A stretch of DNA of 51,608 bases from an uncultured Anaerolineaceae bacterium (GTDB lineage Bacteria > Chloroflexota > Limnocylindria > Limnocylindrales > CSP1-4). This document shows positions 622 to 42,500 of the stretch, piece by piece. The stretch is from assembly GCA_964529245.1 (NCBI GenBank), contig CAZGUS010000003.1, positions 1 to 51,608 on the forward strand, read 5' to 3'. Position numbers and translations under genes: made by a program. How positions within the stretch are numbered: the first letter of the stretch is position 1; every line of letters starts with the position of its first letter. The notes below the pieces were generated by a model. It did no database searches. It was not told the origin of the DNA and worked only from the letters and a program-made list of their open reading frames with translations.

Positions 622-698
622 GCCCCCATCGTCTAGAGGCCCAGGACACGACCCTTTCAAGGTTGAGATCACCGGTTCGAATCCGGTTGGGGGTACCA
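622..698 (+). tRNA. tRNA-Glu (anticodon TTC), CCA encoded
   Basis: Cloverleaf read by eye. Acceptor GCCCCCA/TGGGGGT (G1-U72 wobble). D stem GTCT/GGAC. Anticodon stem CGACC/GGTTG with loop CTTTCAA (TTC at 656-658). T arm ACCGG-TTCGAAT-CCGGT. Discriminator A at 695, CCA at 696-698. Confidence 0.93.
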
Positions 699-20601: not shown

Positions 20602-20829
20602 TCAGCGCACTTCGGGGGTCTGGGAGCCGAGGAAGGCCTCGAGCTGGGACACGGCGACCCGGAGCGCGTCGTTGTCGCGACTCCAGATCTGCCAGTTAGC
20701 GCGGGTTCGCTCCGACCAGCCGAAGAGAAGCCCCGGCGCTCGGTCGAAGGCCTGGAGAAAAGCTCGCGATTCGGTGTTTCGGGTTGCGACCACCCGAGCA
20801 GTTAGACGCTGGAACTCGACGACATCCAT
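20602..20829 (-). CDS. small hypothetical protein (75 aa) immediately downstream of hoxW
   Basis: GGGAGG 4 nt upstream of ATG 20829. Predicted helical. No family recognised. Confidence 0.45.
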   Translation of the reverse strand: MDVVEFQRLTARVVATRNTESRAFLQAFDRAPGLLFGWSERTRANWQIWSRDNDALRVAVSQLEAFLGSQTPEVR

Positions 20830-20922
20830 GAAACCTCCCGCGGCGGATAGATTGACAGTGGCTCCACTGTACTCCCGGCGCGCCGAGCGGCCGGCGCTGC
20901 GTCGCCGGCGAGCGGCAGTCCT

Positions 20923-21390
20923 CTAGCGGCGTCCGTGCTCCACCACGATCGCCACGACCGCTTCGATGACGGCCGGAAGCGCTCGCTCCACGTCCGGCGA
21001 CAGGCCGTCGCCGACATCCATGGAAGCCGCGCCCACGCTCACGACGAACATCGGCGCCGCCGCGCCGTAGAGCTCGGCCGCCAGCGCCCCCAGAGTTGCG
21101 GGCGAGACATGATGGGACGAGGCCGAGCCCGCATCGGGCGTCGGCTCGACCTGCCGGACCGAGATGGCGCCGGGCGCTTCGGTGCTGGCGTCGATCAGGA
21201 CGACGACCGAAGCGGTGCTGATATCGAGCGCCAGCTCGGGCGTCAGCTGGTGCTGCGAGAGCACCCGCGCCCCCGCGAGCCGGGGATCGTCGGCCAGCAG
21301 CTCGGCCGCCCGGCGGCCCAGGCCGTCGTCGCCGCGGAGTGAATTGCCGTAGCCGACGATCAGGATTTCGCGGGGCAGATCACCTGGCAA
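20923..21390 (-). CDS. hoxW: [NiFe] hydrogenase maturation endopeptidase
   Basis: ILIVGYGNSLRGDDGLGRRAAELL and VVLIDA motifs of the HycI/HoxW/HybD family. TTG start overlaps the hoxH end by 11 nt. Confidence 0.8.
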   Translation of the reverse strand: MPGDLPREILIVGYGNSLRGDDGLGRRAAELLADDPRLAGARVLSQHQLTPELALDISTASVVVLIDASTEAPGAISVRQVEPTPDAGSASSHHVSPATLGALAAELYGAAAPMFVVSVGAASMDVGDGLSPDVERALPAVIEAVVAIVVEHGRR

Positions 21391-22801
21391 GGTCGTCCAG
21401 GACGGCGCCGTCGGGCCCGAGGAGCTGGATCTGGAGCGCCATATGGCCGAGGGCGTGGGTCGAGCAGCTGAGGCACGGGTCGTAGCAGCGAATGACCGCC
21501 TCCACCCGATTGAGCATCGGCTCCTCGATCTTGTCGCCCTTCACGTAGTGGCGAGCCACCTGGGCGACGGCGCGGTTCATGGCCATGTTGTTGTGACCCG
21601 TGGCGATGATCAGGTTGGCCCACAGCACGATGCCGTCGTCGTCCACCTTGTAGTGGTGCATCAGCGTACCGCGGGGCGCCTCGGAGACGCCGATGCCCTC
21701 GTTGCGGTTGACCTCTGCTCGCGAACGGACGTGCGTCGACAGGATGTCGGGGCCGCGCAGGATCTCCTCGATCTTCTCGATTGAGTACAACGTGTCGATC
21801 AGGCGGGCGTAGTGGTAATGGAACGACGAACCGGCGACGCGACCGACACGGCCGCGGAAGCGGTCCAGCTCCTCGTCCGCGCGCGGCGTGCCCATGCGCT
21901 CGGCGACGTTGATGCGGGCAAGCGGACCGACGCGATAGATGCCGTCCGGGTAGCCCATAGCCTTCCAGTAAGTCGACTTGAGGTACGACCAGGGCTCCAC
22001 GGTCTCGCCGATATAGTCGTTGAAATCGTGCGGATCGATCCGATCGGCGAGAGCCTTGCCGTCGGCGTCGATGACGCGCAGCCAGCCGTCGTAATGGTCG
22101 ACGTTGCCGTGGCGGTCGACGAGGGCCATGAACGCCGACCGGAAGTTGCCCATCGTGGCGGCTTCTTCCTCCCAGCGCAGCATGTCCGTCTTGTACCAGG
22201 CTATGGCCCGCTCGACGATCGCGATTGCTTCCGGCACCCCGGCCAGGATCCGGTCGCGGACCTCCGGGGTCAGCGGATGGGCGACGCCGCCCGGAACGAT
22301 CCACTCCGGGTGGATGCGCTTGCCGCCCAGCCATTCGATGATCTGCTGGCCCCACTTGCGGAGCTCGATGCCGTCCCTGGCGAGCTGCGGATTCTCTCGC
22401 GCCACGCCGATGATGTTGCGCTTGGCCGGCTCGGCGTCAAAACCGAAGAGCAGGTCCGGCGCAGAAAGGTGGAAGAACGACAGGGCGTTCGACTGCACGA
22501 TCTGGCCCAGGTTGATCACTCGCCGCAGGTCCGCCCCGGTGGGCGGCGGCTCGACGGCCAGGATGTCGTCGACCGCCTTGGACGAGGCGATCAAGTGGCT
22601 GACCGGGCAGATGCCGCAGATCCGCGACATGATCGCGGGCATCTCGTGGACGGGGCGGCCCTGGGTGATGCGCTCGAATCCACGGAACTGAGTCACGTGG
22701 AAATGGGCGTCGACGACCTCGCCGCGCTTGTCGAGCTGGATCGTGATCTTGGAGTGGCCTTCGATCCTGGTGATCGGATCGATGACGATGGTTCGGCTCA
22801 T
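21380..22801 (-). CDS. hoxH: bidirectional NAD(P)-linked [NiFe] hydrogenase large subunit (group 3d type)
   Basis: N-terminal ITRIEGHSKITI and RICGICPVSH (L1 Ni-binding cysteines). C-terminal DPCLSCSTH followed by a 24-aa cleavable extension. 473 aa. GGGAG RBS. Confidence 0.95.
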   Translation of the reverse strand: MSRTIVIDPITRIEGHSKITIQLDKRGEVVDAHFHVTQFRGFERITQGRPVHEMPAIMSRICGICPVSHLIASSKAVDDILAVEPPPTGADLRRVINLGQIVQSNALSFFHLSAPDLLFGFDAEPAKRNIIGVARENPQLARDGIELRKWGQQIIEWLGGKRIHPEWIVPGGVAHPLTPEVRDRILAGVPEAIAIVERAIAWYKTDMLRWEEEAATMGNFRSAFMALVDRHGNVDHYDGWLRVIDADGKALADRIDPHDFNDYIGETVEPWSYLKSTYWKAMGYPDGIYRVGPLARINVAERMGTPRADEELDRFRGRVGRVAGSSFHYHYARLIDTLYSIEKIEEILRGPDILSTHVRSRAEVNRNEGIGVSEAPRGTLMHHYKVDDDGIVLWANLIIATGHNNMAMNRAVAQVARHYVKGDKIEEPMLNRVEAVIRCYDPCLSCSTHALGHMALQIQLLGPDGAVLDDLAR

Positions 22802-22813
22802 GTTCGGCTCCCG

Positions 22814-23344
22814 TCAGCGACCGAACCGGGCCCCGGCCACGTCAGGGACGCGACCGGCCAGCAGGTCATCGAGCAAGTTGTATATGAGGTCGGCGGAAGG
22901 CGGGCAGCCCGGCAGGAAGACGTCGACCTTCACCAAGCGGTGGACGGGCGTCGAGATCGGCAGCAGCTTGGGCACGATCTGGGACGGCAGCTGCGGGTTC
23001 ATGGTCACGTTTTCGATGTAGGCCCGGTCGAGCAGCGGCCCCGTCCCAATCGGGTTGCGCATGCCCGGGACGTTCGATGTGACGGCGCAGTCGCCGAACG
23101 CGACCAGCGTTTTCGTGCGCTCGCGGACCAGCTTGATCTTGTGGAGGTCCTCTTCGCTGGAGACGGCGCCCTCGACAAGGCAGACGTCGACGTTCTCCGG
23201 GAACTCCTTGAAGTCGACAAGAGGACCGTAGACGAGGTCGGCTCGTTCGAAGATGTCGAGCAGGCGCTCGTCAAGATCGATCAGCGACATATGGCAGCCG
23301 GAACAGCCATCGAGCCAGACGGTGGCGACCCGAGGCTTGCTCAC
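22814..23344 (-). CDS. hoxY: [NiFe] hydrogenase small subunit (group 3 type, single proximal cluster)
   Basis: From GTG 23344: [21 protein letters not shown]...[16 protein letters not shown]...VFLPGCPP. 176 aa. GTGA overlap with hoxU. Confidence 0.9.
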
Positions 23345-24057
23345 TGCCCACGCTCCTCTTCCACGACCTTGAGCCACGGCAGGAAGGGCCGCTGCCTCTT
23401 GCTGCCCGACGCCACCGCTCGACCCTTTTCGAAGAGGGCGCCGGTGGGGCAGACCTGAACGCATTTGCCGCAACTGGTGCAGGTGGTCGATTCGCCCCAC
23501 GGGATGCCCATGTCCGTCTGGACGCGGGTCTCGAGGCCGCGATGCATGACGTCCCAGGTGTGCGCGCCTTCGATTTCGTCGCACACCCGAACGCAGCGCA
23601 GGCAGAGGATGCAGCGGTTGTGGTCGATGGCGAAGAGCCGGTGGCTGGCGTCGATGTCGACCTTGGGGCTGATCCGCGGCAGGTCGAAGTGGGTCAACTC
23701 GAGCTCGGCGGCCAGGTCCTGCAGCTCGCAGTGGTTGTTGGCCACGCAGACCGCGCAGACGTGATTGCGTTCGACGAAGAGCATCTCCGTCACAGCGCGG
23801 CGGTATTCCTGGAGCCTCTCGGAGTGCGCCGTGACCTCCATGCCCTCGGTTACTTTGGTCACGCAGGCGGCCGTGAGCTTGGGCGAACCTGCGATCTCGA
23901 CCATGCACAGGCGGCAGGCGCCGCGATCGTGGATGCCTTCGAGGTGGCAGAGGCCGGGGATGTTGATCCCGTTCTCCTCGGCCACTTCCATCACTGTCTG
24001 GCCTTCCGAACCGGCGACATCCTTGCCGTCGATGCGGAAGGTGAAGACGGTCGTCAT
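23341..24057 (-). CDS. hoxU: hydrogenase diaphorase Fe-S subunit (NuoG N-terminal-like)
   Basis: 2Fe-2[20 protein letters not shown], then [21 protein letters not shown] and [15 protein letters not shown] clusters. 238 aa. ATGA overlap with hoxF. Confidence 0.9.
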
Positions 24058-25709
24058 GCCATCACCTCCGGCCGAGTGATCGTGCAGACGCCGGCGGGAC
24101 AGACCTTGTCGACTATGTGGGCCATGTACTCATCCCGGAAGTAGCGCAGCGTGCTGAAGATCGGGTTTGGGGCTCCCTGGCCGAGTCCGCACAGAGCCGT
24201 CTTCTGGATGATGCCGGCCAGCCGTTCGAGCTGAGCCAGATCCTCCAGCGTGGCCTCGCCGCGCGTGATCAGGTCGAGGAGCATGTACAGCTGGGTCGTG
24301 CCGACGCGGCACGGGACGCATTTGCCGCAGGACTCCTCGCGGCAGAAATCCTGGAAGTACTTGGCGACGTCGACCATGCAGGACGTGTCGTCCATCACGA
24401 TCAAGCCGCCCGATCCCATGAATGAGCCGACTTCGATGAGCGACTCGTAGCTCACCGGCATGTCGAGGAACTGGGCCGGAATGCATCCGCCCGACGGGCC
24501 GCCTGTCTGGACTGCCTTGAACGGCCGGCCATCGATGAGGCCGCCGCCGATGTCGTAGACGATCTCGCGCAAGGTCGTGCCCATCGGGACCTCGATCAGG
24601 CCGGTGTTCACGATTCGACCCGCCAGGGCGAAGACCTTCGTGCCCTTGCTCTTCCCGGGGCCGTACTCGGAGAACCACTCGGCGCCCTTGCGCAGGATCG
24701 TCGGGACGTTGGCGTACGTCTCCACGTTGTTGATCAGGGTGGGGCAATCCCACAGGCCCTGGACCGCCGGGTAGGGCGGCCGGGGTCGCGGCGTCCCGCG
24801 CCGGCCCTCGATCGATGCGATCAGGGCGGTCTCTTCGCCGCATACGAACGCGCCGGCGCCGAGACGGATCTGGACGTCGAAGTTGAACGAGGTGTCGGCG
24901 ATGTTGGCGCCAAGCAGTCCGGCGCGCTGGGCCAGACGGATCGCGGTGCGGAGGCGGGCCACGGCCAGCGGGTACTCCGCGCGGCAGTAGATGAAGCCCT
25001 CGGTGGCATGGACGGCAAAGGCCGCGATGGTCATGCCCTCGAGGATCCGGAAGGGGTCGCTTTCGAGGACGCTGCGGTCCATGAACGCGCCGGGGTCGCC
25101 CTCGTCGGCGTTGCACACGACGTATTTCTGGGTTCCCTGGGCCTTCGCCACCGTTGTCCACTTGAGGCCGGTGGGGTAACCGGCGCCGCCGCGGCCGCGC
25201 AGACCGCTGGCGGTGATGGTCTCGCGGACCTCCGTGGACGTCATCTCGTGAAGCACACGGTTGAGGGCTTCGTAGCCGCCGCGGGCCTGGTAGTCCTCGA
25301 GGCTCTCCGGATCGATCCGGCCGAGGTTCTCGGTCACGACGCGGAGCTGCTTCTCGAAGAAGGCGCCCTGGGGCTGGCGAGTGTCGGTCGGCTTGACCTT
25401 CTTGAGGGCGGTCACGATACCGTCGACGTTGTCCGGGGTGACTCTCTCGAAGAGCTGGCCGGTCTCGTTGATCTCGACAAGGGGGCCGGCGGCACACAAT
25501 CCCAGGCAGCCGACGCGCTTGATGGCCACGTCGGTCATGCCGGCCGCGGCGGTCAGCTCGCCCAGACGAGCGGTTATCTCGTGGGCCTGGGCCGACATGC
25601 AGCTGGCGGCCTCGCAGACGTAAGCCGACGCGCGGACCGGGCCGTCATGGTTGTCAGTGGCATTGGCGCGGCGGTGGGTCGGTCGCGCCGCGGCGGGCAT
25701 CTCGCTCAC
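24054..25709 (-). CDS. hoxF: hydrogenase diaphorase NAD(P)H/FMN-binding subunit (NuoF-like with N-terminal thioredoxin-like 2Fe-2S domain)
   Basis: [45 protein letters not shown] and [11 protein letters not shown] motifs. N-terminal CEAASCMS...[13 protein letters not shown] overlap with hoxE; GGAGG RBS. Confidence 0.93.
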
Positions 25710-26197
25710 ATCGCCTCCAGCTCTGCAATGAGCTCAGTTGCGCCGACATGGCCTCTGACGTCGCCGTCGACGATGACGGCCGGGGCCAGGCTGCAGGCGC
25801 CCAGGCATCGGGCGGTCAGCAGGGAGACCTTGCCGTCGGCGGTCGTCTCTTTGGGCTTTACGTGCAGAGCGTCTTCCAGGCCGTTCAGGATCTGCTTCGC
25901 GCCGTTGATGTAGCAGGCCGTTCCGGTGCAGACGACGCAGGTGTGCTTGCCTTGCGGTTTGAGAGTGAAGAAGGAATAGAACGTCGCGACCCCGTAGACC
26001 CGGGAGTGGGGCACGCCAAGGGTGTCGCCGACGTAGTTCAGCGTGTCGGTGTCCAGGTACCCGAAGGCCTCCTGGGCGGCGTGGAGAGCCTCGATCAGCG
26101 CCGCGGGGCGGTCGCCCAGGCGGCGCATGCGTGTCTCCACGATCTTCCAGCGCTTGTCGTCGGTTGGCGCGGTTGGCTTGGCGTGCAGGACGGGCAT
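25706..26197 (-). CDS. hoxE: hydrogenase diaphorase 2Fe-2S subunit (NuoE-like)
   Basis: VATFYSFF...[10 protein letters not shown]...[20 protein letters not shown] 26197 sits 7 nt after GGAGG (ATG 26203 also possible). The track ORF from 26290 has no better signal. Confidence 0.85.
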
Positions 26198-26292
26198 TGC
26201 CATCCCTCCAGTGCGATGGGCAGCGAGCGCCGACAGAAGCCGCTCCGGCGCGTTTCGCGCAGTCGGAACGGGAACCTCCGAGCGGCGCAAGG

Positions 26293-26298
26293 ATCATA
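26293..26298 (-). promoter_or_regulatory. -10-like hexamer TATGAT upstream of hoxE
   Basis: Reverse complement of ATCATA at 26293-26298, about 95 nt upstream of the hoxE ATG in the 262-bp gap after the GGDEF-EAL gene. No clear -35. Confidence 0.25.
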
Positions 26299-26459
26299 CG
26301 AAGCCGGATCGACCGCCCCCCGGGCCGCACCGCCCGACTCCGGGGGCCGTATCTCCCGTGTCCCGGCGGGCCGGTGAGCCCTGCAGCGGGCCGATTGTGT
26401 GGACTTGGGCCGGCGGGTGGGGCAGCGCGACCGGACTCGAAGCCGTCTCGACCGCCCGA

Positions 26460-29351
26460 TCAGATGAGGGGCACCTCCACCTTCGGCGGCGCGCCCGGCC
26501 GGATCGGCCGGATCGGCGGAAGTCTCCGCGCGTTTCTGTGCATCCTGCCTCTTGCGCGCTTCGAAGCAACCTGGACGGCGAAGACGGGTCCCGTCTTGCC
26601 GGCGACCAGGGCTGCCATCTCGTCCGGCTCGAGAGGCGGCGAGAAGACGTAGCCCTGGCCGAGCTCGCAGCCGAGGTCCTGCAGACGCCGGAGCTCGGTC
26701 GGAGTGTCGATGCCTTCGGCCACGGTGGTCAGGTTGAGCGCGCGCCCGATCTCGACCATAGCGTGGACGACGCCCGCGCCCCGACCGGGCTCGTCGAGCG
26801 GCGTCACGAACGACTGGCCGATCCTGATGTGGGTGATCGGGAACTGCTCCAGGTAAGCCAGCGACGAATACCCGGTCCCAAAGTCGTCGATGGCGATCTG
26901 GACGCCGAGCGCTCGGATGGCGTGGAGCCGCTCCAGCGAGGCGGAGCTGTCCTGCATCAGCATGCTCTCCGAGAGCCCGAGGGTCACCCAACTCGGGGTC
27001 GCGCTGGCATGTGCCATCGCCGCCTGAACGGTCCAGGCGAGCTGTGGGTCCGCGACCTGGTGAGCGCACAGCCCGATCGACACCCGGGGCACGCGGCCGG
27101 GCGACAGGGCGGCCCATCGCGCGGCTTCGGCACACGCGGTTCTCAGGACCCATGTGCCTATCTCCTCGATCAGGCCCGCCTCCTCGGCAAGCGGCACGAT
27201 CACGTCCGAGGCGATCGGCCCACGGGTCGGGTGGTCCCATCGGAGGAGGGCCTCGGCCCCGACCAGGTCACCGGTCCGCAGGTCGACGATCGGCTGGTAG
27301 GTCAGCGTGAACTCAGTCTGGTCGAGGGCCCTGCGCAACTCCGACTCGAGCTTGAACGGGGTCTGCGCCGCATCGTGCATGGCCGGATCGAACAGGGCGA
27401 CCCGATCGCCGCCCTTGTTCCGCGCCACCGATCGTGCGGTCGCGGCTCGTCGCAGCAGGCTGCCCGCGTCGACTTCGGCCAGGCGGGCGGTTGCCACGCC
27501 CACACTGCCGGTAAGGTGGATCGGATGGCCGGCGATCTCAACAGTTGCGCGGATGGCTGCGAGGATGCGTTCGGCTGTGGCCAGGCCGCCGTCCGGCGTC
27601 GATTGAGGGTCGATCAGGACCCCGAACTCGTCGCCGCCCAGCCGGCCGCAGGTGTCGCCGACGCCGATGCAGGTGCGCAGCCGGCGAGCGACCTCCTGGA
27701 GCGCCTGATCCCCAACGGTGTTCCCGAAGCTCTCATTGACGTGCCTGAAACCATCCAGGCCGAGCGAGAGGACGGTGGTCCTTCGTTGGGTTCCGACGGC
27801 GCCGGCGAGAGCTTGCCCCACCCGGTCGCGAAGCAGAGTGCGGTTCGGCAGGTCGGTCAGCAGGTCGTGCAGGGCCACCTGGGTTAGTTGCGCTTCGAGC
27901 GTCTTGCGCTCTCTTACGTCGCGGGTCGTGAGCACGATCTGACCGACGGCGGGGTCGTCCAGCAGGTTCACCGCGATCGTCTCCACCTGGCGCCAGACGC
28001 CGGTGGCGTCCCAAAGCCGCCACTCGATCGGCTGCGTGACCGACCGTCGGGCGGCCACGTCCGCGATGAACGCCTCGGCGCGTCCGGCGTCGTCGGCGTG
28101 GACGAAGCGCGAAATCGGGCGGCCCACGAGCCTGGCGGCGTCGACTCCGAGAACGCGCGCGACTGCCGGCGGAGCGTCCGTCACGACGCCGGCTCGGTCG
28201 ACCAGCACCACGACATCGGACGTGTTCGCCGCCAGGGTCCGGAATCGCTCCTCCGACTCCCGACGTGCCTGCTGGGCCACCAGCCGACCGTTGTCGCGCA
28301 GGACCAGTTCCTGGCGCACCAGAACCACCGCCGTCAGCACGACGGCTCCGTACAGGACTTCGATCAACTCGCCGGTGACGCGGTCCATGGCCAGGCCCAC
28401 GAGAACCGAGTAGCCGGCGGCGAGGGCGACGTAGGGGAGAGCCAGGAGCCAGCGGCTCATGGTGTTGGCGCGACCGTCGGTCGAGGCCGCTGGATGAGCC
28501 TGGAAGTACCCGGCCAGGGCCACGAGGACGGTGGAACTCAAGTAGATGATGTCCGGCCAGCGTTCCAGGCCGAATGCTCCCGTCAGGTTGAGCTGCCCGT
28601 AACCCACGTCGGCCACGAACATGAGCCCCAGTCCGCCGACGAGCGAGACGAGCGCCCGAGAGTCGATCTCCGGCGGGTGGCGGAGCGCGGTGGCCGCGAC
28701 GCCGAAGAGAAGGACGAGGTCACCGATCGGATAACCGAGCGCGAGCGCCGCAGTGATCGGGTTCGGATCCAGCGATTCGAGGACGGGCCTGAACAGCGTG
28801 TGCCATACGACGATTCCGCCGCCGATGACGACGATCAAGGAGTCGATCGTGAGCCGCAGAGTGTCTCGACGCGCGCTGGAGGCACGCTGGAACATGAATA
28901 GCGCGGCGACCACGATCGGGTAATAGGAGACGTAGGCGAGGTCGGCCAGCGAGGGTGAATCGGTGCTCGCGCCGGTCAGATCGAGCCAGGCCCAGATCCC
29001 GTCGCCCGCGGCGTAGACGAGCATGGCGACGGCGAGCACGGCCCAGCCGAGGCGAACGCGGCGGCCGTCGATGCTGAGGGCGGCCCGCAGCACGATCACG
29101 GCGGCCAGAACGTCCAGCGCGGATTCGCCCAGATCGGCCACCGCCCGACGTGCGGCAGGGTCCCCCAGGCCGGAGGCCAGCCACAGGGCGGCGAAGGCCC
29201 AGATGGCGGCGGCGAAGCCCATCAGAGTTCGATCGAGGACGAGTCTTCTGGTGAGTCGCAGGTCGGATCCGGTATCGACAGAGGGCCGCAAGCGGGGTCG
29301 TTTCGCGGGAGCTACGGGCGCTCGCGATGAGCTATTGAGGACTCGGGTCAT
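26460..29351 (-). CDS. membrane sensor diguanylate cyclase/phosphodiesterase: about 10 TM helices, PAS, GGDEF, EAL
   Basis: ATG 29351 (MTRVLNSS). About 10 hydrophobic helices. PAS-like ERFRTLAANTSDVVVLVD. RLGGDEFGVLI (GGDEF). EALLRW, DDFGTGYSSL and EGIDT...QGY (EAL). The 91 upstream codons of the track ORF are Arg-rich and discarded. Confidence 0.9.
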   Translation of the reverse strand: MTRVLNSSSRAPVAPAKRPRLRPSVDTGSDLRLTRRLVLDRTLMGFAAAIWAFAALWLASGLGDPAARRAVADLGESALDVLAAVIVLRAALSIDGRRVRLGWAVLAVAMLVYAAGDGIWAWLDLTGASTDSPSLADLAYVSYYPIVVAALFMFQRASSARRDTLRLTIDSLIVVIGGGIVVWHTLFRPVLESLDPNPITAALALGYPIGDLVLLFGVAATALRHPPEIDSRALVSLVGGLGLMFVADVGYGQLNLTGAFGLERWPDIIYLSSTVLVALAGYFQAHPAASTDGRANTMSRWLLALPYVALAAGYSVLVGLAMDRVTGELIEVLYGAVVLTAVVLVRQELVLRDNGRLVAQQARRESEERFRTLAANTSDVVVLVDRAGVVTDAPPAVARVLGVDAARLVGRPISRFVHADDAGRAEAFIADVAARRSVTQPIEWRLWDATGVWRQVETIAVNLLDDPAVGQIVLTTRDVRERKTLEAQLTQVALHDLLTDLPNRTLLRDRVGQALAGAVGTQRRTTVLSLGLDGFRHVNESFGNTVGDQALQEVARRLRTCIGVGDTCGRLGGDEFGVLIDPQSTPDGGLATAERILAAIRATVEIAGHPIHLTGSVGVATARLAEVDAGSLLRRAATARSVARNKGGDRVALFDPAMHDAAQTPFKLESELRRALDQTEFTLTYQPIVDLRTGDLVGAEALLRWDHPTRGPIASDVIVPLAEEAGLIEEIGTWVLRTACAEAARWAALSPGRVPRVSIGLCAHQVADPQLAWTVQAAMAHASATPSWVTLGLSESMLMQDSSASLERLHAIRALGVQIAIDDFGTGYSSLAYLEQFPITHIRIGQSFVTPLDEPGRGAGVVHAMVEIGRALNLTTVAEGIDTPTELRRLQDLGCELGQGYVFSPPLEPDEMAALVAGKTGPVFAVQVASKRARGRMHRNARRLPPIRPIRPGAPPKVEVPLI

Positions 29352-29466
29352 GCATGACGCCGGAGCCTCGGGGAGTGGTTCTTGATTGAACCTCGAGACC
29401 AATCGAGGATCTCCGCATGCCACGGCGCCGAACAGGTGCCAGAGGTCCCTCCCGGGTGCGTCTATT

Positions 29467-29486
29467 TGGTATCCGCCTGGTATCCG
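29467..29486. promoter_or_regulatory. direct repeat TGGTATCCG-N2-TGGTATCCG (11-bp phasing) in the nifJ / GGDEF-EAL divergent intergenic region; candidate transcription-factor site
   Basis: Exact 9-mers at 29467-29475 and 29478-29486, unusually A/T-containing for this DNA, about 115 bp from the GGDEF-EAL start and 360 bp from the nifJ start. Confidence 0.35.
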
Positions 29487-29845
29487 GGCCGGGGTCAACG
29501 CGTGCCGCCTGGGTGGACGAGCCCGCCGCCGCGGGGCCGACCGACGCCCGTGGCGGGGCGCAGCGGCCCGGCCTGCCGGCGATCGTCGATCGTCGGAATC
29601 CGCTCGGTCTCGGGCCAGTGGCACCGGTCGGCACGGCCGTCTCGGGCCCGCTGGTATCGATCAGAGGGGCCGAAGGGCCTGCCCCGATGGCGGCACGGAC
29701 GGATATGATCGAACAACAGCGCGCCATGGGCGCACGACCACGCATTCCCTTCCAGCCAGGCTTGGGAACGTGCCGCATTCGAGTTCGTGTTCCGTCGGGC
29801 GGCCTCGCCGCCATGAGGAAGGCACGACCCAGGGAGATTCGACGA

Positions 29846-32800
29846 ATGGATCAGCGGTGGGAGTGTCTCGACGGTAACGAAGCGGCCGCCCGGGTCGCTT
29901 ACAAGGTGAGCGAGGTCATCTCGATCTTCCCGATCACGCCGGCCTCGCCGATGGCGGAGCATGCCGACGACTGGGCGGCTGCGGGCAAGCCGAACCTGTG
30001 GGGCAAGGTCCCGGACGTGGTCGAAATGCAGTCCGAGGGCGGCGCCGCGGGCGCGATGCACGGCGCACTTCAGAAGGGCGCACTGGCCACGACCTTCACG
30101 GCGTCCCAGGGCCTCCTGCTCATGATCCCGAACATGTTCAAGATCGCCGGCGAGCTGACCCCCGCGGTCATCCACGTCGCGGCTCGAACTCTCGCAACCC
30201 ACGCGCTGTCGATCTTCGGCGACCACAGCGACGTGATGCATGCCCGGGCGACGGGCTGGGCGATGCTGGCCGCTGGCTCGGTCCAGGAAGCCCACGACTT
30301 TGCCCTGGTCTCCCACGCCGCGACGCTCCGGTCGCGAGTCCCGTTCCTCCACTTCTTCGACGGCTTCCGGACATCCCACGAAGTCAACAAGATCGTGGTC
30401 CTAGAAGACGACGACATGCGGGCCCTGATCCGCGATGAGGACGTCCTGGCCTTCCGCAGCCGCGGCCTCACGCCGAACGCCCCGGTCGTGCGCGGCACCG
30501 CCCAGAACCCCGATGCCTTCTTCCAGGCCCGCGAGGCCTCGAACCCCTACTACCTGGCGCTGCCCGGCATCGTCAAGGAAGTGATGGACGAGTTCGCCGC
30601 CCGGACCGGCCGCCGCTACGGGCTGGTCGACTACCACGGCGCCCCGGACGCCGAGCGCGTGATCGTCGTGATGGGATCCGCCGTCGGCGCCGTCGAGGAA
30701 ACCGTCGATGCGCTCGTGGCCGCGGGCCAGAAGGTCGGCGTCCTGAAGGTGCGGCTGTTCCAGCCGTTCCCGATCGACGAGTTCGTCGCGGCGCTGCCCT
30801 CGACGGTGCGCGCCATCGCCGTCCTGGACCGGACCAAGGAGCCCGGCGCGGTAGGCGAGCCGCTCTACCTCGAGGTCGTGGCCGCCATCTCCGAGCGCAT
30901 GGACAGCGAGAAGCCGCCGTTCAAGACCGTCCCTAGGATCATCGGCGGGCGCTACGGCCTGTCCTCGAAGGAAGTCACGCCTTCGATGATCAAGCCCATC
31001 TTCGATGAGCTCTCCGCCGCGAAGGCCAGGAAGCACTTCACGATCGGCATCTACGACGACGTCACCCACCTCAGCCTGCCGATCGACACCGAGTTCCACC
31101 ACGCCCGACCGGCCGGCGAAGTCCAGGCCATGTTCTTCGGGCTCGGCTCGGACGGCACCGTCGGCGCCAACAAGTCGTCGGTGAAGATCATCGGCGAGGG
31201 CACCGACCTCTTCGCCCAGGGCTACTTCGTCTACGACTCCAAGAAGTCGGGCTCGGTCACCGTGTCCCACCTGCGATTCGGTCCCAAGCCGATCCGCTCC
31301 GCCTACCTCGTCGAGGGCGCGGACTTCGTCGCCTGCCACCAGTTCGGCCTCCTCGAGCGGACGAAGATCGTCGAGTTCGCCAAGCACGGGGCAACGTTCC
31401 TGCTCAACTCACCGTACGGCCCGGACGAAGTCTGGGATCAGCTCCCGAAGACGGTCCAGCAGCAGATGGTCGACAAGGCCATCGACCTGTGGGTGATCGA
31501 TGCCTTCGCCGTCGCCGAAGAAGTTGGCATGGGCAACCGCATCAACACGGTCATGCAGCCCTGCTTCTTCCATCTCGCCGGCGTTCTGCCCCCGGAAGAG
31601 GCGATCTCGCGTATCAAGAAGTTCACCCAGAAGACCTACGCCAAGCGCGGCCAGGCGGTCGTCGACCGCAACTTCGCGGCGATCGACATGTCGATCGGGC
31701 GGCTCGGCCACGTCAAGCTCGGGAAGGCGACGAGCAACCGCTCGCTGATGTTCTCGGTACCGGACACCGCCCCGGACTTCGTCAAGAAGGTGACCGCGGT
31801 GCTGATGGCCGGCGACGGCGACATGCTGCCGGTCAGCGCGTTCCCGGTCGACGGAACGTTCCCGACGGGCACCACCAAGTACGAGAAGCGCGCCATCGCC
31901 CAGTCGATCCCTGTGTGGGATCCGTCTATCTGCATCGACTGCGGCAAGTGCGCCATGGTCTGCCCGCACGCCACAATCCGGATGAAGGTGTTCCCGACCG
32001 CCGCGGCGGCGAATGCCCCGGCCGGCTATCTCACCAAGGAGTTCAAGTCCCGTGAGCTGCCGGATCATCTGATCACCATCCAGGTCGCCCCGGACGACTG
32101 CACCGGCTGCGGCGTCTGCGTCGACGTTTGCCCGGCCAAGAGCAAGACCGACTCGAGCCACAAGGCCATCAATATGGAGCCGGTCGAGGACCACGCCGAC
32201 GCCGAGCGCCCCAACTGGGACTTCTTCCTCTCCATCCCGCAGCTCGACCGCAACCTGCTGGCCCACGACACAGTGAAGGGATCCCAGGTCCTCGAGCCCC
32301 TCTTCGAGTTCTCCGGCGCGTGCTCCGGCTGCGGCGAGACGCCGTACCTGCGCCTCGTCAGCCAGCTCTTCGGCGACCGCATGATCGTGGCCAATGCCAC
32401 GGGCTGCACCTCGATCTACGGCGCCAACCTGCCGACCACGCCCTGGACGGTGAACGCCGCCGGACGCGGGCCGGCCTGGAACAACTCCCTCTTCGAGGAC
32501 AACGCCGAGTTCGGTCTGGGCATGCGCCTCGCGCTCGACGCCCAGAACGACCACGCTCGGGGGCTGTTGACTCGCCTGGCTGCTGTGGTCGGCGAGGACC
32601 TCGTTCGCGAGCTTCTCGAGAGCGCCCAGAACACCGAACCGGAGATCGACCTCCAGCGCGCCCGAGTGGCGCGGCTGCGGGAAAAGCTGTCGGGCGTGAA
32701 CGGCGCACACCGCGCCGAGGCCCAGCACCTGCTGGCGCTGGCGAACGACCTCGTCCGCCATGGAATCTGGATCGTCGGCGGCGACGGCTGGGCTTACGAC

Positions 32801-33484
32801 ATCGGCTTCGGCGGCCTCGATCAGGTCCTGAGCTCGGGTCGAAACGTCAACATCCTCGTCCTCGACACGGAGGTCTACTCCAACACCGGCGGCCAGGCGT
32901 CGAAGTCGACGCCGCGCGGCGCGGTGGCGAAGTTCGCCGCGGCCGGCAAGTCCACCGGCAAGAAGGACCTCGGCGCGATCGCCCGGGCCTACGGCAACGT
33001 CTACGTGGCCCAGATCGCGATGGGCGCAAACGACGCGCAGACCACGAAGGCACTGCTCGAAGCGGACGCCTGGCCGGGAACGTCGCTCGTGATCGCCTAC
33101 AGCACGTGCATCGCTCACGGCATCGACATGTCGACCTCGATGTCCCATCAGAAGGACGCCGTCAAGAGCGGTTACTGGCCGCTCTACCGCTACCAGCCCA
33201 GCGAAAACGAAGGCGGGCAGCCGTTCAAGCTCGACTCGAGCGCACCGTCCATACCGGTCAAGGAGTTCGTGGCGAGCGAGACCCGCTACGCCATCCTGGC
33301 CCGCACGAACCCCGAACGGGCGGCCGAGCTGGCCGAGCTGGCTCAGGCCGACACGGACGAGCGGCGGCGCTATTACGAACAGCTGGCCGGCATCCACCAG
33401 ACCGTCCCGCACCTCGACGAGGCCGATCTCGAAGCGGCCGTCGCCGCAGCAGCCGCCGCCGGGCGCGGCGTCGAGGAGGAGTAG
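29846..33484 (+). CDS. nifJ: pyruvate:ferredoxin (flavodoxin) oxidoreductase, single-polypeptide type
   Basis: AGGGAG RBS then MDQRWECLDGNEAAARVAYKVSEVISIFPITPASPMAE, the conserved PFOR N-terminus. Ferredoxin domain CIDCGKCAMVCPHA / CTGCGVCVDVCPA. TPP site GGDGWAYDIGFGGLD. 1212 aa. Confidence 0.95.
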   Translation: MDQRWECLDGNEAAARVAYKVSEVISIFPITPASPMAEHADDWAAAGKPNLWGKVPDVVEMQSEGGAAGAMHGALQKGALATTFTASQGLLLMIPNMFKIAGELTPAVIHVAARTLATHALSIFGDHSDVMHARATGWAMLAAGSVQEAHDFALVSHAATLRSRVPFLHFFDGFRTSHEVNKIVVLEDDDMRALIRDEDVLAFRSRGLTPNAPVVRGTAQNPDAFFQAREASNPYYLALPGIVKEVMDEFAARTGRRYGLVDYHGAPDAERVIVVMGSAVGAVEETVDALVAAGQKVGVLKVRLFQPFPIDEFVAALPSTVRAIAVLDRTKEPGAVGEPLYLEVVAAISERMDSEKPPFKTVPRIIGGRYGLSSKEVTPSMIKPIFDELSAAKARKHFTIGIYDDVTHLSLPIDTEFHHARPAGEVQAMFFGLGSDGTVGANKSSVKIIGEGTDLFAQGYFVYDSKKSGSVTVSHLRFGPKPIRSAYLVEGADFVACHQFGLLERTKIVEFAKHGATFLLNSPYGPDEVWDQLPKTVQQQMVDKAIDLWVIDAFAVAEEVGMGNRINTVMQPCFFHLAGVLPPEEAISRIKKFTQKTYAKRGQAVVDRNFAAIDMSIGRLGHVKLGKATSNRSLMFSVPDTAPDFVKKVTAVLMAGDGDMLPVSAFPVDGTFPTGTTKYEKRAIAQSIPVWDPSICIDCGKCAMVCPHATIRMKVFPTAAAANAPAGYLTKEFKSRELPDHLITIQVAPDDCTGCGVCVDVCPAKSKTDSSHKAINMEPVEDHADAERPNWDFFLSIPQLDRNLLAHDTVKGSQVLEPLFEFSGACSGCGETPYLRLVSQLFGDRMIVANATGCTSIYGANLPTTPWTVNAAGRGPAWNNSLFEDNAEFGLGMRLALDAQNDHARGLLTRLAAVVGEDLVRELLESAQNTEPEIDLQRARVARLREKLSGVNGAHRAEAQHLLALANDLVRHGIWIVGGDGWAYDIGFGGLDQVLSSGRNVNILVLDTEVYSNTGGQASKSTPRGAVAKFAAAGKSTGKKDLGAIARAYGNVYVAQIAMGANDAQTTKALLEADAWPGTSLVIAYSTCIAHGIDMSTSMSHQKDAVKSGYWPLYRYQPSENEGGQPFKLDSSAPSIPVKEFVASETRYAILARTNPERAAELAELAQADTDERRRYYEQLAGIHQTVPHLDEADLEAAVAAAAAAGRGVEEE

Positions 33485-33486
33485 TC

Positions 33487-34512
33487 GTGTCCGTCGATCT
33501 GCGCACTCGCTATCTCGGTCTCGACCTTCGCTCGCCGATCGTCGCGTCCGCCTCCCCGGCAACGGGCGAGCTGGAAACGACCCAATTGCTCGACGAGGCC
33601 GGCGTCGGCGCCATCGTCCTCCCGTCGCTGTTCGAGGAAGAGATCCTCAACGACGAGATCCAGCTCAATCGCTCCCTCGAAACAGGAGCCGGCCAGTTCG
33701 CCGAGGCCCTCGAGTACTTTCCCACCGTCGACTCTCTACCCGGTGTCGGCGAGCGCTACCTGGCCCGCCTGTCGCAGATCAAGGCGCAGTCGACGGTGCC
33801 GGTCATCGCCAGCCTCAACGCCACTACGGCCGGCGGGTGGGTCCGCTACGCGAAGCTGATGCAGGATGCCGGCGCCGATGCGCTGGAGCTCAATCTCTAT
33901 CGCGTCGCCGCGGACCCGGCCAGGACTGCCGAGGAAATGGATGCGGCAGACCTGGACCTGATCGCCGCGGTGCGAGCCTCGGTCACGATTCCGCTGGCCG
34001 TGAAACTCAGCCCGTATTACTCGGCCTTCGCCAGCTTCGCGGGCGCGGCGATCGGGCGCGGCGCCGACGGGTTGGTCCTGTTCAACCGCTTCTACCAGCC
34101 CGACCTGGACCTCGAGACCCTCGACGTGGTCAACCGGGTCGAATTGAGCAGGCCATCGGAGATTCGGCTGCCGCTGCGCTGGATCGCGATACTCCGACCG
34201 CAGCTGGGCGCGAAGGTATCGCTGGCGGCCAGCTCCGGAGTCCATTCGGGTTCGGACGTCGTCAAGCAGCTGCTGGTCGGCGCGGACGTGGCCATGATGA
34301 CCTCGGCGTTGCTGCGCCACGGACCGGGGCATGTTCGGACGGTCGAACAGGAGCTCCGCGGTTGGATGGAGGAGCACGAGTACGAGTCCGTCACCCAGCT
34401 CCGTGGCAGCGTCAGCCAGGCGACCGCGCACAATCCCGCGGCCTACGAGCGGGCCAACTACATGCAAACGCTCCACTCGTGGTCGACGCCGCCGGAGGCG
34501 GCGCGGGCCTAG
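33487..34512 (+). CDS. dihydroorotate dehydrogenase-like flavoprotein (PyrD-fold TIM barrel, function unassigned)
   Basis: GTG 33487, 2 nt after the nifJ stop. YLGLDLRSPIVASASP, GAIVLPSLFEE, ADALELNLY, IPLAVKLSP, GADGLVLFNRF, SSGVHSGSDVVKQLLVGADVAMMTSA. 341 aa. Confidence 0.85.
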   Translation: MSVDLRTRYLGLDLRSPIVASASPATGELETTQLLDEAGVGAIVLPSLFEEEILNDEIQLNRSLETGAGQFAEALEYFPTVDSLPGVGERYLARLSQIKAQSTVPVIASLNATTAGGWVRYAKLMQDAGADALELNLYRVAADPARTAEEMDAADLDLIAAVRASVTIPLAVKLSPYYSAFASFAGAAIGRGADGLVLFNRFYQPDLDLETLDVVNRVELSRPSEIRLPLRWIAILRPQLGAKVSLAASSGVHSGSDVVKQLLVGADVAMMTSALLRHGPGHVRTVEQELRGWMEEHEYESVTQLRGSVSQATAHNPAAYERANYMQTLHSWSTPPEAARA

Positions 34513-39363: not shown

Positions 39364-39559
39364 CCGGCATGGTTCGCCGGGGAGACTTTCGGACTCGTGG
39401 TTCGGCCGCGACGATCGGCCTCGCTGGCTCGATCTGTCCATTGCGTCTTCCGGCAGGCCGCCGGAACATGACACGGATCGCGCCGTGTCGCGTCCTGCCG
39501 GCAGCTCGGGGCGGCACTGGTGGGCTACCGACTTTCGAGTTCCGGACGGGAGGCGTGAA

Positions 39560-42500
39560 GTGACTTCGATGCGCAGGGTCCTGCCGTTGGCGGCGCTGCT
39601 TGCGATCGTCACCATGAGCGCTCCCACGGGCGCCGCCGCGTCGGCTCAGGCCGCTCCGGCCGGCGGCGCCGGTTCTCAGGCCGCTCCGGCCGGCGGCGCT
39701 GACGCGGTCGGCCTGACCGGCACGCTGCGGCTGGCAATCGCCGACGACTTCTCGGGCGGGCAGTCGCAAACGCTGTACTCCATCGACAACGCCGCCGGAT
39801 CCACGCCGATCACCATCACCGGAGCCGGCGCCGACGAACTCGACGGCGCGTTGGTCCGAGTCTCCGGCCGCCGTCAGGCCGACGGCAGCGTCGCGGTCGC
39901 CGCGGGCCAGATCGTGGTCGTGAAGACCGCCGCCGAGAACCCGGACGCGGCCGGCCTCGGCTTCCGATTCGGGTCGGGCGGCGCCTTGCCGGCCGTGCCC
40001 GCCAGCCAGAGCGTGGCCGTGGTAATCGCCGACTACACGGACCTGGCCGGCTGGCCGGTCACGGTGGCCGATGCGCAGCAGACATTTACCGGCTCGACGG
40101 CGTCGGTCCACAGTTACTTCGAGGCGACCTCGCGCGGCCGCTTCAGCACCACGGCAACCGTGCTGGGGCCGTGGCATCTGGGCATCGCCCAATGCGCCGG
40201 CGGCAACACGAGCTGGTCGCTCAGCGCCACCGTGGCCGCTGCCGCGAGCCAGGCAACGGCACATGGATACAACCTCAACTCGTACGACCACGTAGTGATC
40301 TGGACGAAGGCGCCGTGCAAGCTGGGCTGGGCCGGTATCGGCCAGATGCCCGGCAAGTACGTGCAGATCGACATGGACTGGGCCACATACACCGGCGACG
40401 AGCCGGCAGTCACGACCATGGTCGCTTCGCACGAACTCGGGCACAACCTCGGCCTGGATCACTCGAACGGCCTGGGATGCTTCGACGGCCTGGGCAACCA
40501 GGTCGAACTCGGCAGCGCCTGCCTGGATTACGAGTACCTCGACGAGTACACGACGATGGGCATGGCCGGCGCTTCCGATCACGCTCTGCTCGACGCCGAC
40601 CGCCTCGAGTCCCTGGGCTGGCTGGCTGCCGGTGAGTCTCAGGACGTGACCGGCGTGGGCACCTATTCCCTTGTGCCGGTCTATTCGAGCTCGCCGGGAG
40701 TGCGCTTGCTGCGCATCGCAAGACCGACGCCCGTGCTGGGCGGGGGCCTGTCGGGCGCATGGACGCTGGAGCTGCGATCGACCCTCGTCGGGGCCGCGTG
40801 GGATCAGTTCGCCGCATCGACGTATTCGCCCGTCACGACCGGCGTGACCGTCAGGTATTCGGAGGGCTTCGGCCAGTCCGGCATCTCCGGCCAGAGCTAT
40901 CTGGTCGACTCCGTACCCGACGCCGTGAACTCCAACACCCCCGACTTCTGGGATGCGCCCTTCGAACCCGGCGCAACCTTCAGCGACCCGACCGGCGGCT
41001 TCACCATCACTGTGGACTCCGTCAACGGATCCGGCGCCAGCGTCACCATCGGCGACACTCAGGCGCCGACCGCGCCGCTCTCGCTCGAGGCGACCGCCCT
41101 GCCCACCGGCGGCGCGGAGCTCGACTGGCAGGCAGCGTCGGACAACCTTGGCCTGGCCGGCTATCGGGTCTATCGCGGCGGCACCTTCCTGGCCACGGTC
41201 CCGGCCGGCACACTGACATACGAGGATCCGCCGGCCGGCGTGGGCGGGTTCCAAAGCTACTCCGTGACCGCGGTCGACACCGCCGGCCTGGAGGGTCCGG
41301 CCGCGACCGCGAGCGCGAGCCTGCTTCCGCCGCCGAGCGCGCCGCAGTCGCCGACTGCCACGGCCGGCAACGGCGCCGCGCTGGTGAGATGGAGCCCGCC
41401 GGTCTCCGGGGCGCCGATCACCGCGTACACCGTCACCTCGAACCACGGCCAGATGTGCGCCACGACCGGCGCACTCAGCTGCATCGTGGGCGGTCTCACC
41501 AACAACACCTCGTACACCTTCACAGTCACGGCCACCAACATGGTCGGGACGGGCCCGGCCTCGAGCGCGACCGCCGCCGTGACGCCGCTGCCGGTGCCGG
41601 GCCGCCCCACCGGCGTGTCGGGCGTCCCCGGCGACACGACCGTCGTTGTCTCCTGGGCCGCCCCCGCCGACCAGGGTTCGAGCTCGGTGAGCGCGTATAC
41701 GGTCACTTCCTCGCCGGGCAACTTCAGCTGCTCCCCGAACCCGGGCAACCTCTTCTGCACCGTCGGCGGGCTGGCCGACGGCGTGCCCTACTCGTTCACG
41801 GTCACCGCAACCAACGACCTGGGCACGGGTCTGCCGTCCGATCCGTCGCCACCGATAACGCCGCGCACCCGCCCCGACGCTCCCGTCGACGTCGTCGCGC
41901 TGGGCTCGAACCGTTCGGCCCTCGTCTCGTGGGGATCGCCTCCGTTCAACGGCGGGAGCCCCGTCCTTTCCTACGACGTCGTCTCCACGCCCGATTCTCT
42001 GACCTGCCATACGACCGGAGCGCGTTCCTGCACGATCTCGGGGCTGACCAACAGAGTCACGTACACGTTCTCCGTCACCGCCACGAACGTGGCCGGCACC
42101 AGCGATCCGTCCGCGGCCTCGCCCGGCGCGATGCCGCTTGCCGGAGCCACGTACGTGCCTATCACTCCGAACCGACTCGTCGATTCGCGCGCCGGCACGC
42201 GTCTCGGGCTCACGGCCTCGTTGAGCAACAAGGTCCCGGTCTCGTTCCAGGTAACCGGCCGTTCGGCCGATCCGAGCCTCGACATTCCAACCGGCGCGGT
42301 CGCCGTTACCGGCAACCTGACCGTGGTCGATCAAGGCTCGTACGGCTACCTGAGCCTGACTCCCGCCAGGCCCGTCGGAACCCCGGCCACATCGACGCTC
42401 AACTTCCCCGCCGGAGACACTCGGGCCAACGCCGTCACGGTTCCACTTGGCGCGGGCGGAACGCTGTGGGTCACGTTCGTGGGCGTCTCCGGCAAGAAGG

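Follow-up and report, generated by a model that had tools for sequence, protein, structure and literature searches.

We analysed a stretch of 51,608 nt (hereafter the window) from an uncultured, non-photosynthetic soil/peat bacterium of the Limnocylindrales (Chloroflexota-related). Here the genes of a [NiFe] hydrogenase (hoxEFUYHW) lie beside those for a single-chain pyruvate:ferredoxin/flavodoxin oxidoreductase (PFOR, encoded by nifJ), a flavoprotein resembling dihydroorotate dehydrogenase (DHOD) and a membrane-bound PAS-GGDEF-EAL sensor of cyclic di-GMP (c-di-GMP) turnover. A first-pass annotation of this DNA had read the four parts as one undescribed system, built around a single control region and gated by c-di-GMP. 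The results presented below make it probable that the locus instead holds three independently evolving units standing side by side in one population: hoxEFUYHW, nifJ with the DHOD-like gene, and the PAS-GGDEF-EAL sensor gene. The biochemical half of the earlier proposal (PFOR, Hox and a flavoprotein partner) is supported and was already known in outline; support is lacking for the regulatory half, with its c-di-GMP gate, its single control region and its claim to be an undescribed system.

The G+C content of the window is uniformly ~68%, and G+C by codon position marks the real reading frames. The ten genes that had been placed at the locus were all found at, or within a few codons of, the positions given for them. 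On the minus strand the order is a 75-aa open reading frame (ORF), hoxW, hoxH, hoxY, hoxU, hoxF, hoxE, a gap of 262 bp and the PAS-GGDEF-EAL gene. Diverging from the latter on the plus strand is nifJ, with the DHOD-like gene beginning 2 nt past its stop codon. The nifJ unit and hox are 3.6 kb apart. The features are as follows.

25706..26197, minus strand: hoxE, diaphorase [2Fe-2S] subunit (NF005747, 225.1 bits, cut-off 224)
24054..25709, minus strand: hoxF, FMN- and NAD(P)H-binding diaphorase subunit (2Fe-2S_thioredx, Complex1_51K, SLBB, NADH_4Fe-4S)
23341..24057, minus strand: hoxU, diaphorase Fe-S subunit (NF005745, 362 bits, cut-off 333)
22814..23344, minus strand: hoxY, hydrogenase small subunit (PF01058 Oxidored_q6, E = 1.4e-27)
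21380..22801, minus strand: hoxH, [NiFe] hydrogenase large subunit, predicted group 3d type (PF00374; PF27537 HoxH, precomputed)
20923..21390, minus strand: hoxW, hydrogenase maturation endopeptidase (TIGR00072, 85 bits, cut-off 47)
29846..33484, plus strand: nifJ, single-chain pyruvate:ferredoxin/flavodoxin oxidoreductase (TIGR02176, 1746 bits, cut-off 911, residues 7-1181)
33487..34512, plus strand: DHOD-like FMN flavoprotein of the PRK07565 family (NF005741, 424 bits, cut-off 303, residues 3-333)
26460..29222, minus strand: c-di-GMP turnover sensor of 920 aa, with ~9 transmembrane (TM) segments, PAS, GGDEF and EAL (EAL 2.7e-65, GGDEF 1.5e-31, PAS_4)
26293..26341, minus strand: hox promoter-like element inside the 262-bp gap, its hexamer ~96 nt before the hoxE ATG
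29223..29845, no strand assigned: divergent spacer between the GGDEF-EAL gene and nifJ, presumably holding both promoters
20602..20829, minus strand: 75-aa ORF downstream of hoxW, lineage-specific and possibly not a real gene

The order nifJ, GGDEF-EAL gene, hox recurs in four independent metagenome assemblies (L001, L002, L003 and L005), and it is therefore not an assembly artefact or a chimera. Homologues at 83-93% identity carry the names Candidatus Limnocylindrales or Chloroflexota.

The six hox genes are predicted to form an operon for a cytoplasmic, NAD(P)-linked bidirectional [NiFe] hydrogenase of group 3d type together with its protease. The diaphorase module (HoxE, HoxF and HoxU) is encoded together with HoxY and HoxH, and the genes are translationally coupled. 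All of them had been described as overlapping. Direct reading of the junctions upheld this for hoxE/hoxF and hoxU/hoxY (GTGA), for hoxF/hoxU (ATGA) and, given a TTG start for hoxW, for hoxH/hoxW (11 bp), whereas between hoxY and hoxH there is a gap of 12 nt with a GGGAG ribosome-binding site. HoxE is 163 aa long in the gene calls of independent assemblies. HoxH carries the Ni-Fe ligand motifs RICGIC (residue 60) and DPCLSC (residue 441), the latter followed by STH and a 26-residue C-terminal tail that, judged by its sequence, is cleavable and would be removed by HoxW. The domains of HoxF are of the NuoF type, with an additional 2Fe-2S domain at the N-terminus. No hyp genes were found in the window. 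Group 3d hydrogenases have been reported to be abundant in the Chloroflexi supergroup (bioRxiv 10.1101/2021.08.23.457424).

When the subunits were compared with solved structures, the best match to HoxH was 7T2R_D (525 bits), followed by 5XF9_D, with the group 3c Mvh/Vhu and group 3a Frh enzymes lower; HoxF likewise matched 7T2R_B best (670 bits), ahead of 5XF9. PDB 7T2R/7T30 is, as we take it, the reversible electron-bifurcating NiFe-HydABCSL of Acetomicrobium mobile. Window HoxF (551 aa) aligns to residues 5-537 of the 597 residues of 7T2R_B and ends 8 residues past the match. It thereby lacks the C-terminal stretch of ~60 residues, presumably an extra ferredoxin-like cluster domain, and for this reason bifurcation was not inferred and assignment as an electron-bifurcating (Bfu-type NiFe-HydABCSL) hydrogenase was not adopted.

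NifJ combines the domains POR_N, PFOR_II, POR, EKR, 2x[4Fe-4S] (Fer4) and TPP_enzyme_C in one polypeptide. Its linkage to hox was surveyed from both sides. One set consisted of 80 nifJ loci, drawn from 80 species genomes across many phyla and extended by up to 10 kb in both directions, and was screened by tblastn with all ten window proteins; the second set comprised 80 metagenome contigs whose HoxF is 60-94% identical to that of the window. The nifJ/DHOD-like unit adjoins hox in 17 of the 80 hox contigs, which include near-duplicates and represent ~13 distinct arrangements. Seven of the 17 have nifJ divergent and upstream, three have it colinear and upstream (nifJ, DHOD-like gene, hoxE) and seven have it colinear and downstream of hoxW. 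From the side of nifJ, hox was found within 10 kb in 5 of the 80 loci, in other phyla (L031, L041 from Chlorogloeopsis PCC 6912, L048, L050 and L067). The expectation that PFOR and Hox belong together is thus supported. Five hox contigs (L126, L127, L129, L141 and L142), with nifJ at 80-88% identity to the window gene, have nifJ and hoxE diverging over 150-280 bp with nothing between them. The window looks like such a direct divergent nifJ/hoxE pair into which the sensor gene has been introduced. Four Limnocylindria-like nifJ loci (nifJ 78-81% identical) contain the DHOD-like gene and have neither hox nor the sensor.

It is conceivable that all of these adjacencies arose by chance, the nifJ-hox neighbourhood being genome shuffling without functional meaning. 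No synteny was found between the flanks of the window locus and those of relatives; 75 of the 80 nifJ loci lack hox within 10 kb; and the genes upstream of hoxE in other relatives are highly variable (MFS transporter, glyoxalase, PLP enzyme, acetyl-CoA synthetase, URO-D homologue, EamA transporter, hybrid histidine kinase). However, placement of nifJ and the DHOD-like gene by hox in three orientations and several phyla indicates repeated independent juxtaposition, the DHOD-like gene lies immediately before hoxE in four lineages (L048, L146, L158 and L166), and coupling of the two enzymes at both the biochemical and the regulatory level has been published (PMC11368403). We regard an origin of the whole neighbourhood by chance as barely credible.

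That coupling also bears on novelty. In Synechocystis, Hox takes electrons from NADH, ferredoxin and flavodoxin, and in microoxia the reduced ferredoxin is supplied mainly via PFOR (PMC11368403). Every hox-bearing cyanobacterium has nifJ according to Barz et al. (2010), who found the genes clustered in two genomes (PMC2974642). The link itself is already on record: transfer of PFOR-reduced ferredoxin to Hox and co-induction of hox with the nifJ unit have been published (PMC11368403), and nifJ beside hox/hyp was noted in 2010 (PMC2974642).

Several loci carry genes of acetate metabolism in the same neighbourhoods. An ADP-forming acetyl-CoA synthetase-GNAT fusion is encoded immediately upstream of nifJ in 5 of the 80 nifJ loci (L018 and four others), and L009 has a gene of the same type a few kb upstream of hoxE. 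An AMP-forming acetyl-CoA synthetase is encoded directly upstream of hox in L009 and L107. The nifJ-hox juxtapositions, together with the ADP-forming acetyl-CoA synthetase neighbours, fit conversion of pyruvate to acetyl-CoA and on to acetate with formation of ATP, H2 serving as the electron sink.

The sensor gene was characterized next to these two units. Its start had been placed at 29351; the most likely start is ATG 29222, giving 920 aa, because four independent gene calls agree on it and all ortholog alignments start only around residue 60 of the longer frame, and 29351 is kept as an alternative upstream start. With the start at 29222, the spacer to nifJ measures ~623 bp rather than 495 bp, and at the N-terminus ~9 hydrophobic segments were counted where ten had been proposed. 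The motifs GGDEF (residue 572), EALLR (residue 700) and DDFGTG (residue 822) are intact, EGID replaces EGVE, and no RxxD inhibitory site could be read in the sequence just upstream of GGDEF. Among 120 orthologs, GGDEF is retained in 103, EAL in 95 and DDFGTG in 110. The protein is accordingly predicted, by its motifs, to be a catalytically competent GGDEF-EAL enzyme.

The N-terminal domain of the sensor (28272-29222, minus strand; ~320 aa, ~9 TM segments) is not covered by any Pfam or NCBIfam model. Matches to it were nevertheless found in 4158 cluster representatives (1339 of them at E <= 1e-10), always at the N-terminus and joined to GGDEF, (PAS-)GGDEF-EAL, histidine-kinase or hybrid-kinase outputs. 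These matches indicate a large, unmodelled family of membrane sensor-input domains. One of its members stands beside hox in a relative: in a Limnocylindrales metagenome-assembled genome (GCA_049521175.1; L012-L015, 3293-6199, minus strand), a gene for a 968-aa hybrid histidine kinase diverges from hoxE. This kinase comprises a membrane domain, two PAS domains, HisKA, HATPase and REC; its membrane domain shares 31% identity with that of the window sensor, and the HoxH of that relative is 90% identical to that of the window. The idea that the shared N-terminal membrane domain marks a hox-specific sensor was considered and rejected, since the family is very large and modular.

Full-length orthologs of the sensor, at 50-82% identity, occur throughout the Limnocylindrales, and the gene most likely encodes an enzyme that serves c-di-GMP signalling in this bacterial group generally. 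Six ortholog contexts were looked up, and five of them (L177-L181) were unrelated: the cluster that holds the ortholog in L178 also contains a sigma factor gene, a gene weakly matching FlaG and further PAS/GAF/EAL genes, and the remaining four contexts are miscellaneous. The inclusion of a c-di-GMP gene in the system failed in the survey that had been set in advance as its refuting test. A sensor ortholog was present in 0 of the 80 hox contigs and 0 of the 80 nifJ loci, and the four-part adjacency, absent from both sets, was seen only in contigs of the same population. Similarity to GGDEF/EAL in 4 of the 80 nifJ loci represents generic domain matches at 29-34% identity. The sensor is also missing from the hox contigs closest to the window, L096 (HoxF 94% identical, 2.5 kb available upstream) and L097 (HoxF 93%, 7.9 kb).

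These findings were weighed against the possibility that the sensor is a dedicated gate, which would respond to redox, O2 or membrane state and switch a pyruvate-to-H2 module via c-di-GMP, so that the four parts form one system. Several observations count in favour of such a gate and against three independent units. The sensor gene shares the orientation of hox, lies just 262 bp upstream of it and diverges from nifJ; with no terminator recognised, read-through into hox is possible. Its catalytic motifs are intact and kept in orthologs. The closest ortholog (L176, 82% identical) is separated by 4.6 kb from a hoxE sharing 85% identity with the window gene, and the L012 kinase, with the same type of membrane domain, is directly upstream of hoxE. 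Taken together, L176 and the window show some sensor-hoxE neighbourhood link in two lineages. In L176 the ortholog is divergent from hoxE, with four genes between them, and sits inside a c-di-GMP signalling cluster; nifJ was not found in the 17.9 kb of contig examined.

Against a dedicated gate stand the absence of orthologs from both surveys, the lack of the sensor in L096 and L097, which are nearer by Hox identity, and the unrelated contexts of five of the six orthologs. With 4158 representatives of the N-terminal domain, two hox neighbours that carry it are weak evidence. Furthermore, hox retains a conserved promoter of its own (see below). No c-di-GMP riboswitch was detected by Rfam, either across the whole window at the gathering threshold or in the hoxE leader at E <= 10; no PilZ domain was found among the window proteins scanned; and a literature search returned no paper linking c-di-GMP to Hox. 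We consider a dedicated c-di-GMP gate very unlikely, and infer that the sensor gene between nifJ and hoxE reflects a local rearrangement, a lineage-specific quirk with no regulatory tie to its neighbours.

L176 and the orientation of the genes leave a narrower version to be weighed, in which the sensor was recruited to the hox neighbourhood in this lineage and that of L176, coupling c-di-GMP to fermentative pyruvate-to-H2 metabolism. This too we judge to be a long shot. If true, it would be the first link of c-di-GMP to a [NiFe] hydrogenase or PFOR and would tie the choice between sessile and motile lifestyles to H2 metabolism, for example through membrane redox sensing and a transcription factor that binds c-di-GMP and acts on the promoter of hox or nifJ.

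The preferred reading, three units side by side, is also supported by the gap before hoxE, which contains a conserved element. Its upstream block reads GAGTCGGGCGGTGCGGCC at 26340-26323 (minus strand). In the alignment of relatives a conserved GAGTCGGGnnnnGCGGCC block is followed ~25 nt downstream by a hexamer, TATGAT or TATCAT, which in the window is the -10-like TATGAT at 26298-26293. The element aligns at the same distance from hoxE in ~28 related Limnocylindria hox loci, whatever gene lies upstream, and bases 1, 2 and 6 of the hexamer (T, A and the final T; TAnnnT) are invariant across the aligned loci. This is the pattern expected of a sigma-70 -10 box, and we read the element as the predicted promoter of the hox operon together with an upstream protein-binding site. 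An RNA element or riboswitch in the hoxE leader was considered as an alternative and rejected: Rfam gave no match at the gathering threshold or at E <= 10, and RNAalifold on 29 aligned hoxE leaders yielded 3 pairs and no covariation. Because RNA structure, covariation and Rfam matches were all lacking, we interpret the conserved block as a promoter/operator acting at the DNA level.

Neither nifJ nor the sensor gene is preceded by a copy of the hox element. The divergent spacer can thus be common to nifJ and the sensor gene only, and not to hox, which removes the single shared control region that had been proposed. The nifJ upstream regions of relatives showed no conservation or alignment with the window spacer. 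A scan for consensus promoters and terminators recognised none, and such a scan is uninformative in this 68% G+C sequence.

The same gap contains a 20-nt direct repeat, 90% identical (26438-26457 and 26299-26318). The copy at 26438-26457 abuts the stop codon of the GGDEF-EAL gene and is a degenerate version of the segment before the -10 box. It may be a scar of the rearrangement that put the sensor gene there. Apart from this duplicate, a search around the sensor gene for footprints of insertion, namely flanking repeats, IS elements and remnants of synteny, gave nothing.

The DHOD-like flavoprotein had been left unassigned, and the surveys mark its gene as a true partner of nifJ. Of the 75 nifJ loci with sufficient sequence downstream, 67 (~89%) have it immediately after nifJ and on the same strand, at a distance of <=300 nt in 64 of those 67. 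The pair occurs in more than ten phyla, among them Chloroflexota, Actinomycetota, Acidobacteriota, Cyanobacteriota, Bacteroidota/Ignavibacteriota, Pseudomonadota and Verrucomicrobiota. A true dihydroorotate dehydrogenase (class 1A, 1B or 2) was rejected as an identity, the best DHOD model reaching 70 bits against a cut-off of 269. Among solved structures, the PyrD subunit of DHOD 1B comes closest, with only 35 bits. Arg139 of the window protein aligns to the Cys in the ELNISCPN loop of 1EP1_A, which we take to be the catalytic base of DHOD 1B, and the equivalent position varies (Y/H/F/S/A/L) across 69 family members. The family keeps FMN-site-like motifs and has a family-specific FNRFxQPD motif. 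An AlphaFold2 model of the protein, for which the input was close homologues only, had a mean pLDDT of 53 and was too poor to be used.

Some arrangements separate the DHOD-like gene from nifJ. In L166 it is co-oriented with hox and nifJ is divergent. On Acaryochloris pREB4 (L182/L184) it lies with pfk and hypD ~31 kb upstream of hoxE, and nifJ is not annotated in the ~69 kb examined. On a Stanieria plasmid (L185) it stands beside ldh, ppsA and adh with no adjacent nifJ. The plasmid homologues carry the name of the DHOD-like subfamily in RefSeq. The link of the DHOD-like protein may therefore be to the fermentative/H2 pathway and not to PFOR alone.

A second flavoprotein gene accompanies the pair at some loci. 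In 4 of the 80 nifJ loci (L025 and three others), a GltD/NfnB-like NAD(P)-binding Fe-S flavoprotein is encoded directly upstream of nifJ, with the DHOD-like gene downstream, and the same trio occurs in Methylovirgula pHY1 (L183). It is the trio seen in Propionibacterium, and it resembles a split dihydropyrimidine-dehydrogenase-like module wrapped around PFOR.

Our guess is that the DHOD-like protein is a putative PFOR-associated FMN redox partner. The stronger proposal, that it is the obligate redox partner of single-chain PFOR across bacteria, we hold to have an even chance of being right, which makes it more probable, as well as less radical, than the c-di-GMP link. As a putative partner of PFOR without the DHOD catalytic base, it is the most interesting remainder of the locus and a well-defined target for biochemistry.

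The two metabolic units could work as follows. Transcription of hoxEFUYHW would start at the operon's own conserved promoter, within the 262-bp gap. By analogy with the published cyanobacterial system, PFOR would at low oxygen turn pyruvate into acetyl-CoA and CO2, reducing ferredoxin or flavodoxin. The HoxEFU diaphorase would take up these low-potential electrons and/or NAD(P)H, and HoxYH would dispose of them as H2, so that oxidised carriers are regenerated and ATP can be gained from acetyl-CoA. We infer this direction of electron flow, and the route would also be reversible. Lacking the DHOD catalytic base, the DHOD-like protein would most likely swap electrons between FMN and Fe-S clusters alongside PFOR, in analogy to the FMN domains of DHOD-1B and dihydropyrimidine dehydrogenase.

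The reverse, uptake direction was also considered, in which Hox oxidises H2 and reduces NAD(P)+ and ferredoxin, PFOR acts as a pyruvate synthase, and the locus serves H2-driven assimilation. Group 3d hydrogenases and PFOR are both reversible, HoxH and HoxF are nearest to the subunits of 7T2R, a reversible bifurcating enzyme, and the acetyl-CoA synthetase genes beside hox in L009 and L107 could give acetyl-CoA from acetate. However, HoxF lacks the C-terminal ~60 residues of 7T2R_B, the ADP-forming acetyl-CoA synthetase genes by nifJ (L018) and by hox (L009) fit the formation of acetate and ATP from pyruvate, and the DHOD-like gene of cyanobacteria lies among the fermentation genes ldh, adh, ppsA and pfk. 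Moreover, the system that has been studied experimentally is a fermentative valve (PMC11368403). Operation mainly in the uptake direction therefore appears unlikely, and the fermentative direction is preferred.

The surroundings of the locus are unrelated to redox metabolism and comprise genes for an alpha/beta hydrolase, DUF4395, pirin, an MFS transporter, small membrane proteins and a DsbD-like protein. The 75-aa ORF downstream of hoxW has no Pfam or NCBIfam match and is not HypC-like; homologues were found only in contigs of the same population, and its third-position G+C (0.76) is below that of the neighbouring genes. A megablast search of the locus against plasmids returned partial nifJ matches only. 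Elsewhere in the window, a tRNA gene (622-695, plus strand) was the sole Rfam match at the gathering threshold. Two further plus-strand genes, both unrelated to the locus, encode a 1289-aa protein that has fibronectin-III repeats and weakly matches reprolysin-type metalloproteases (39485-43354) and a PASTA-domain Ser/Thr protein kinase (45050-46966).

We regard the c-di-GMP gene as a lineage-specific neighbour, and the locus should therefore not count as a new second-messenger-gated redox system. The tandem GGDEF-EAL architecture, the PAS input and the intact catalytic motifs of the window sensor are shared with phosphodiesterases of the DibA/DosP type. Nevertheless, the protein scores far below the NCBIfam equivalog cut-offs (DibA, 388 against 980; DosP, 306 against 857), and its N-terminal ~320-aa, 9-TM input domain without a family model sets it apart from the generic GGDEF-EAL enzymes listed.

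For the hydrogenase, NiFe-HydABCSL (7T2R) is the best solved match to both HoxH and HoxF, ahead of the NAD-reducing hydrogenase of Hydrogenophilus (5XF9), with the difference that window HoxF stops ~60 residues short of 7T2R_B.

In Propionibacterium, a GltD/NfnB-like gene and a DHOD-like gene stand on either side of the PFOR gene (McCubbin et al. 2020, PMC7650540). The DHOD-like gene is co-transcribed and co-regulated with PFOR there, and a PFOR-linked redox complex has been proposed (PMC7650540). The window is similar in that the DHOD-like gene adjoins PFOR; it differs in lacking the GltD-like gene, and the Propionibacterium case involves no hydrogenase.

Another close likeness is to Synechocystis PCC 6803 (hox, sll1220-1226), with which the window shares five Hox subunits plus protease, a single-chain PFOR and a DHOD-like gene downstream of nifJ. 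In Synechocystis, nifJ (sll0741), sll0743 and the 'DHOD' gene sll0744 form one transcription unit, TU3296, which is transiently co-induced with hox in microoxia (PMC11368403). The Synechocystis units lie at separate sites, with a hypothetical gene between nifJ and the DHOD-like gene, whereas in the non-photosynthetic Limnocylindrales host the units are divergent, 3.6 kb apart and have the GGDEF-EAL gene between them.

Physical linkage of nifJ to hox/hyp was described in Arthrospira maxima and Synechococcus WH 5701, where it was read as Hox disposing of PFOR electrons in fermentation (PMC2974642). The window shows the same nifJ-hydrogenase linkage in a different phylum. Beyond the cyanobacteria of Barz et al., divergent and colinear nifJ-DHOD-like-hox arrangements occur in Chloroflexota-related, acidobacterial, verrucomicrobial and other genomes. 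A gene linkage known from a few cyanobacteria thus recurs elsewhere in several arrangements, and this supports the view that soil and sediment bacteria generally use Hox as a sink for electrons from PFOR.

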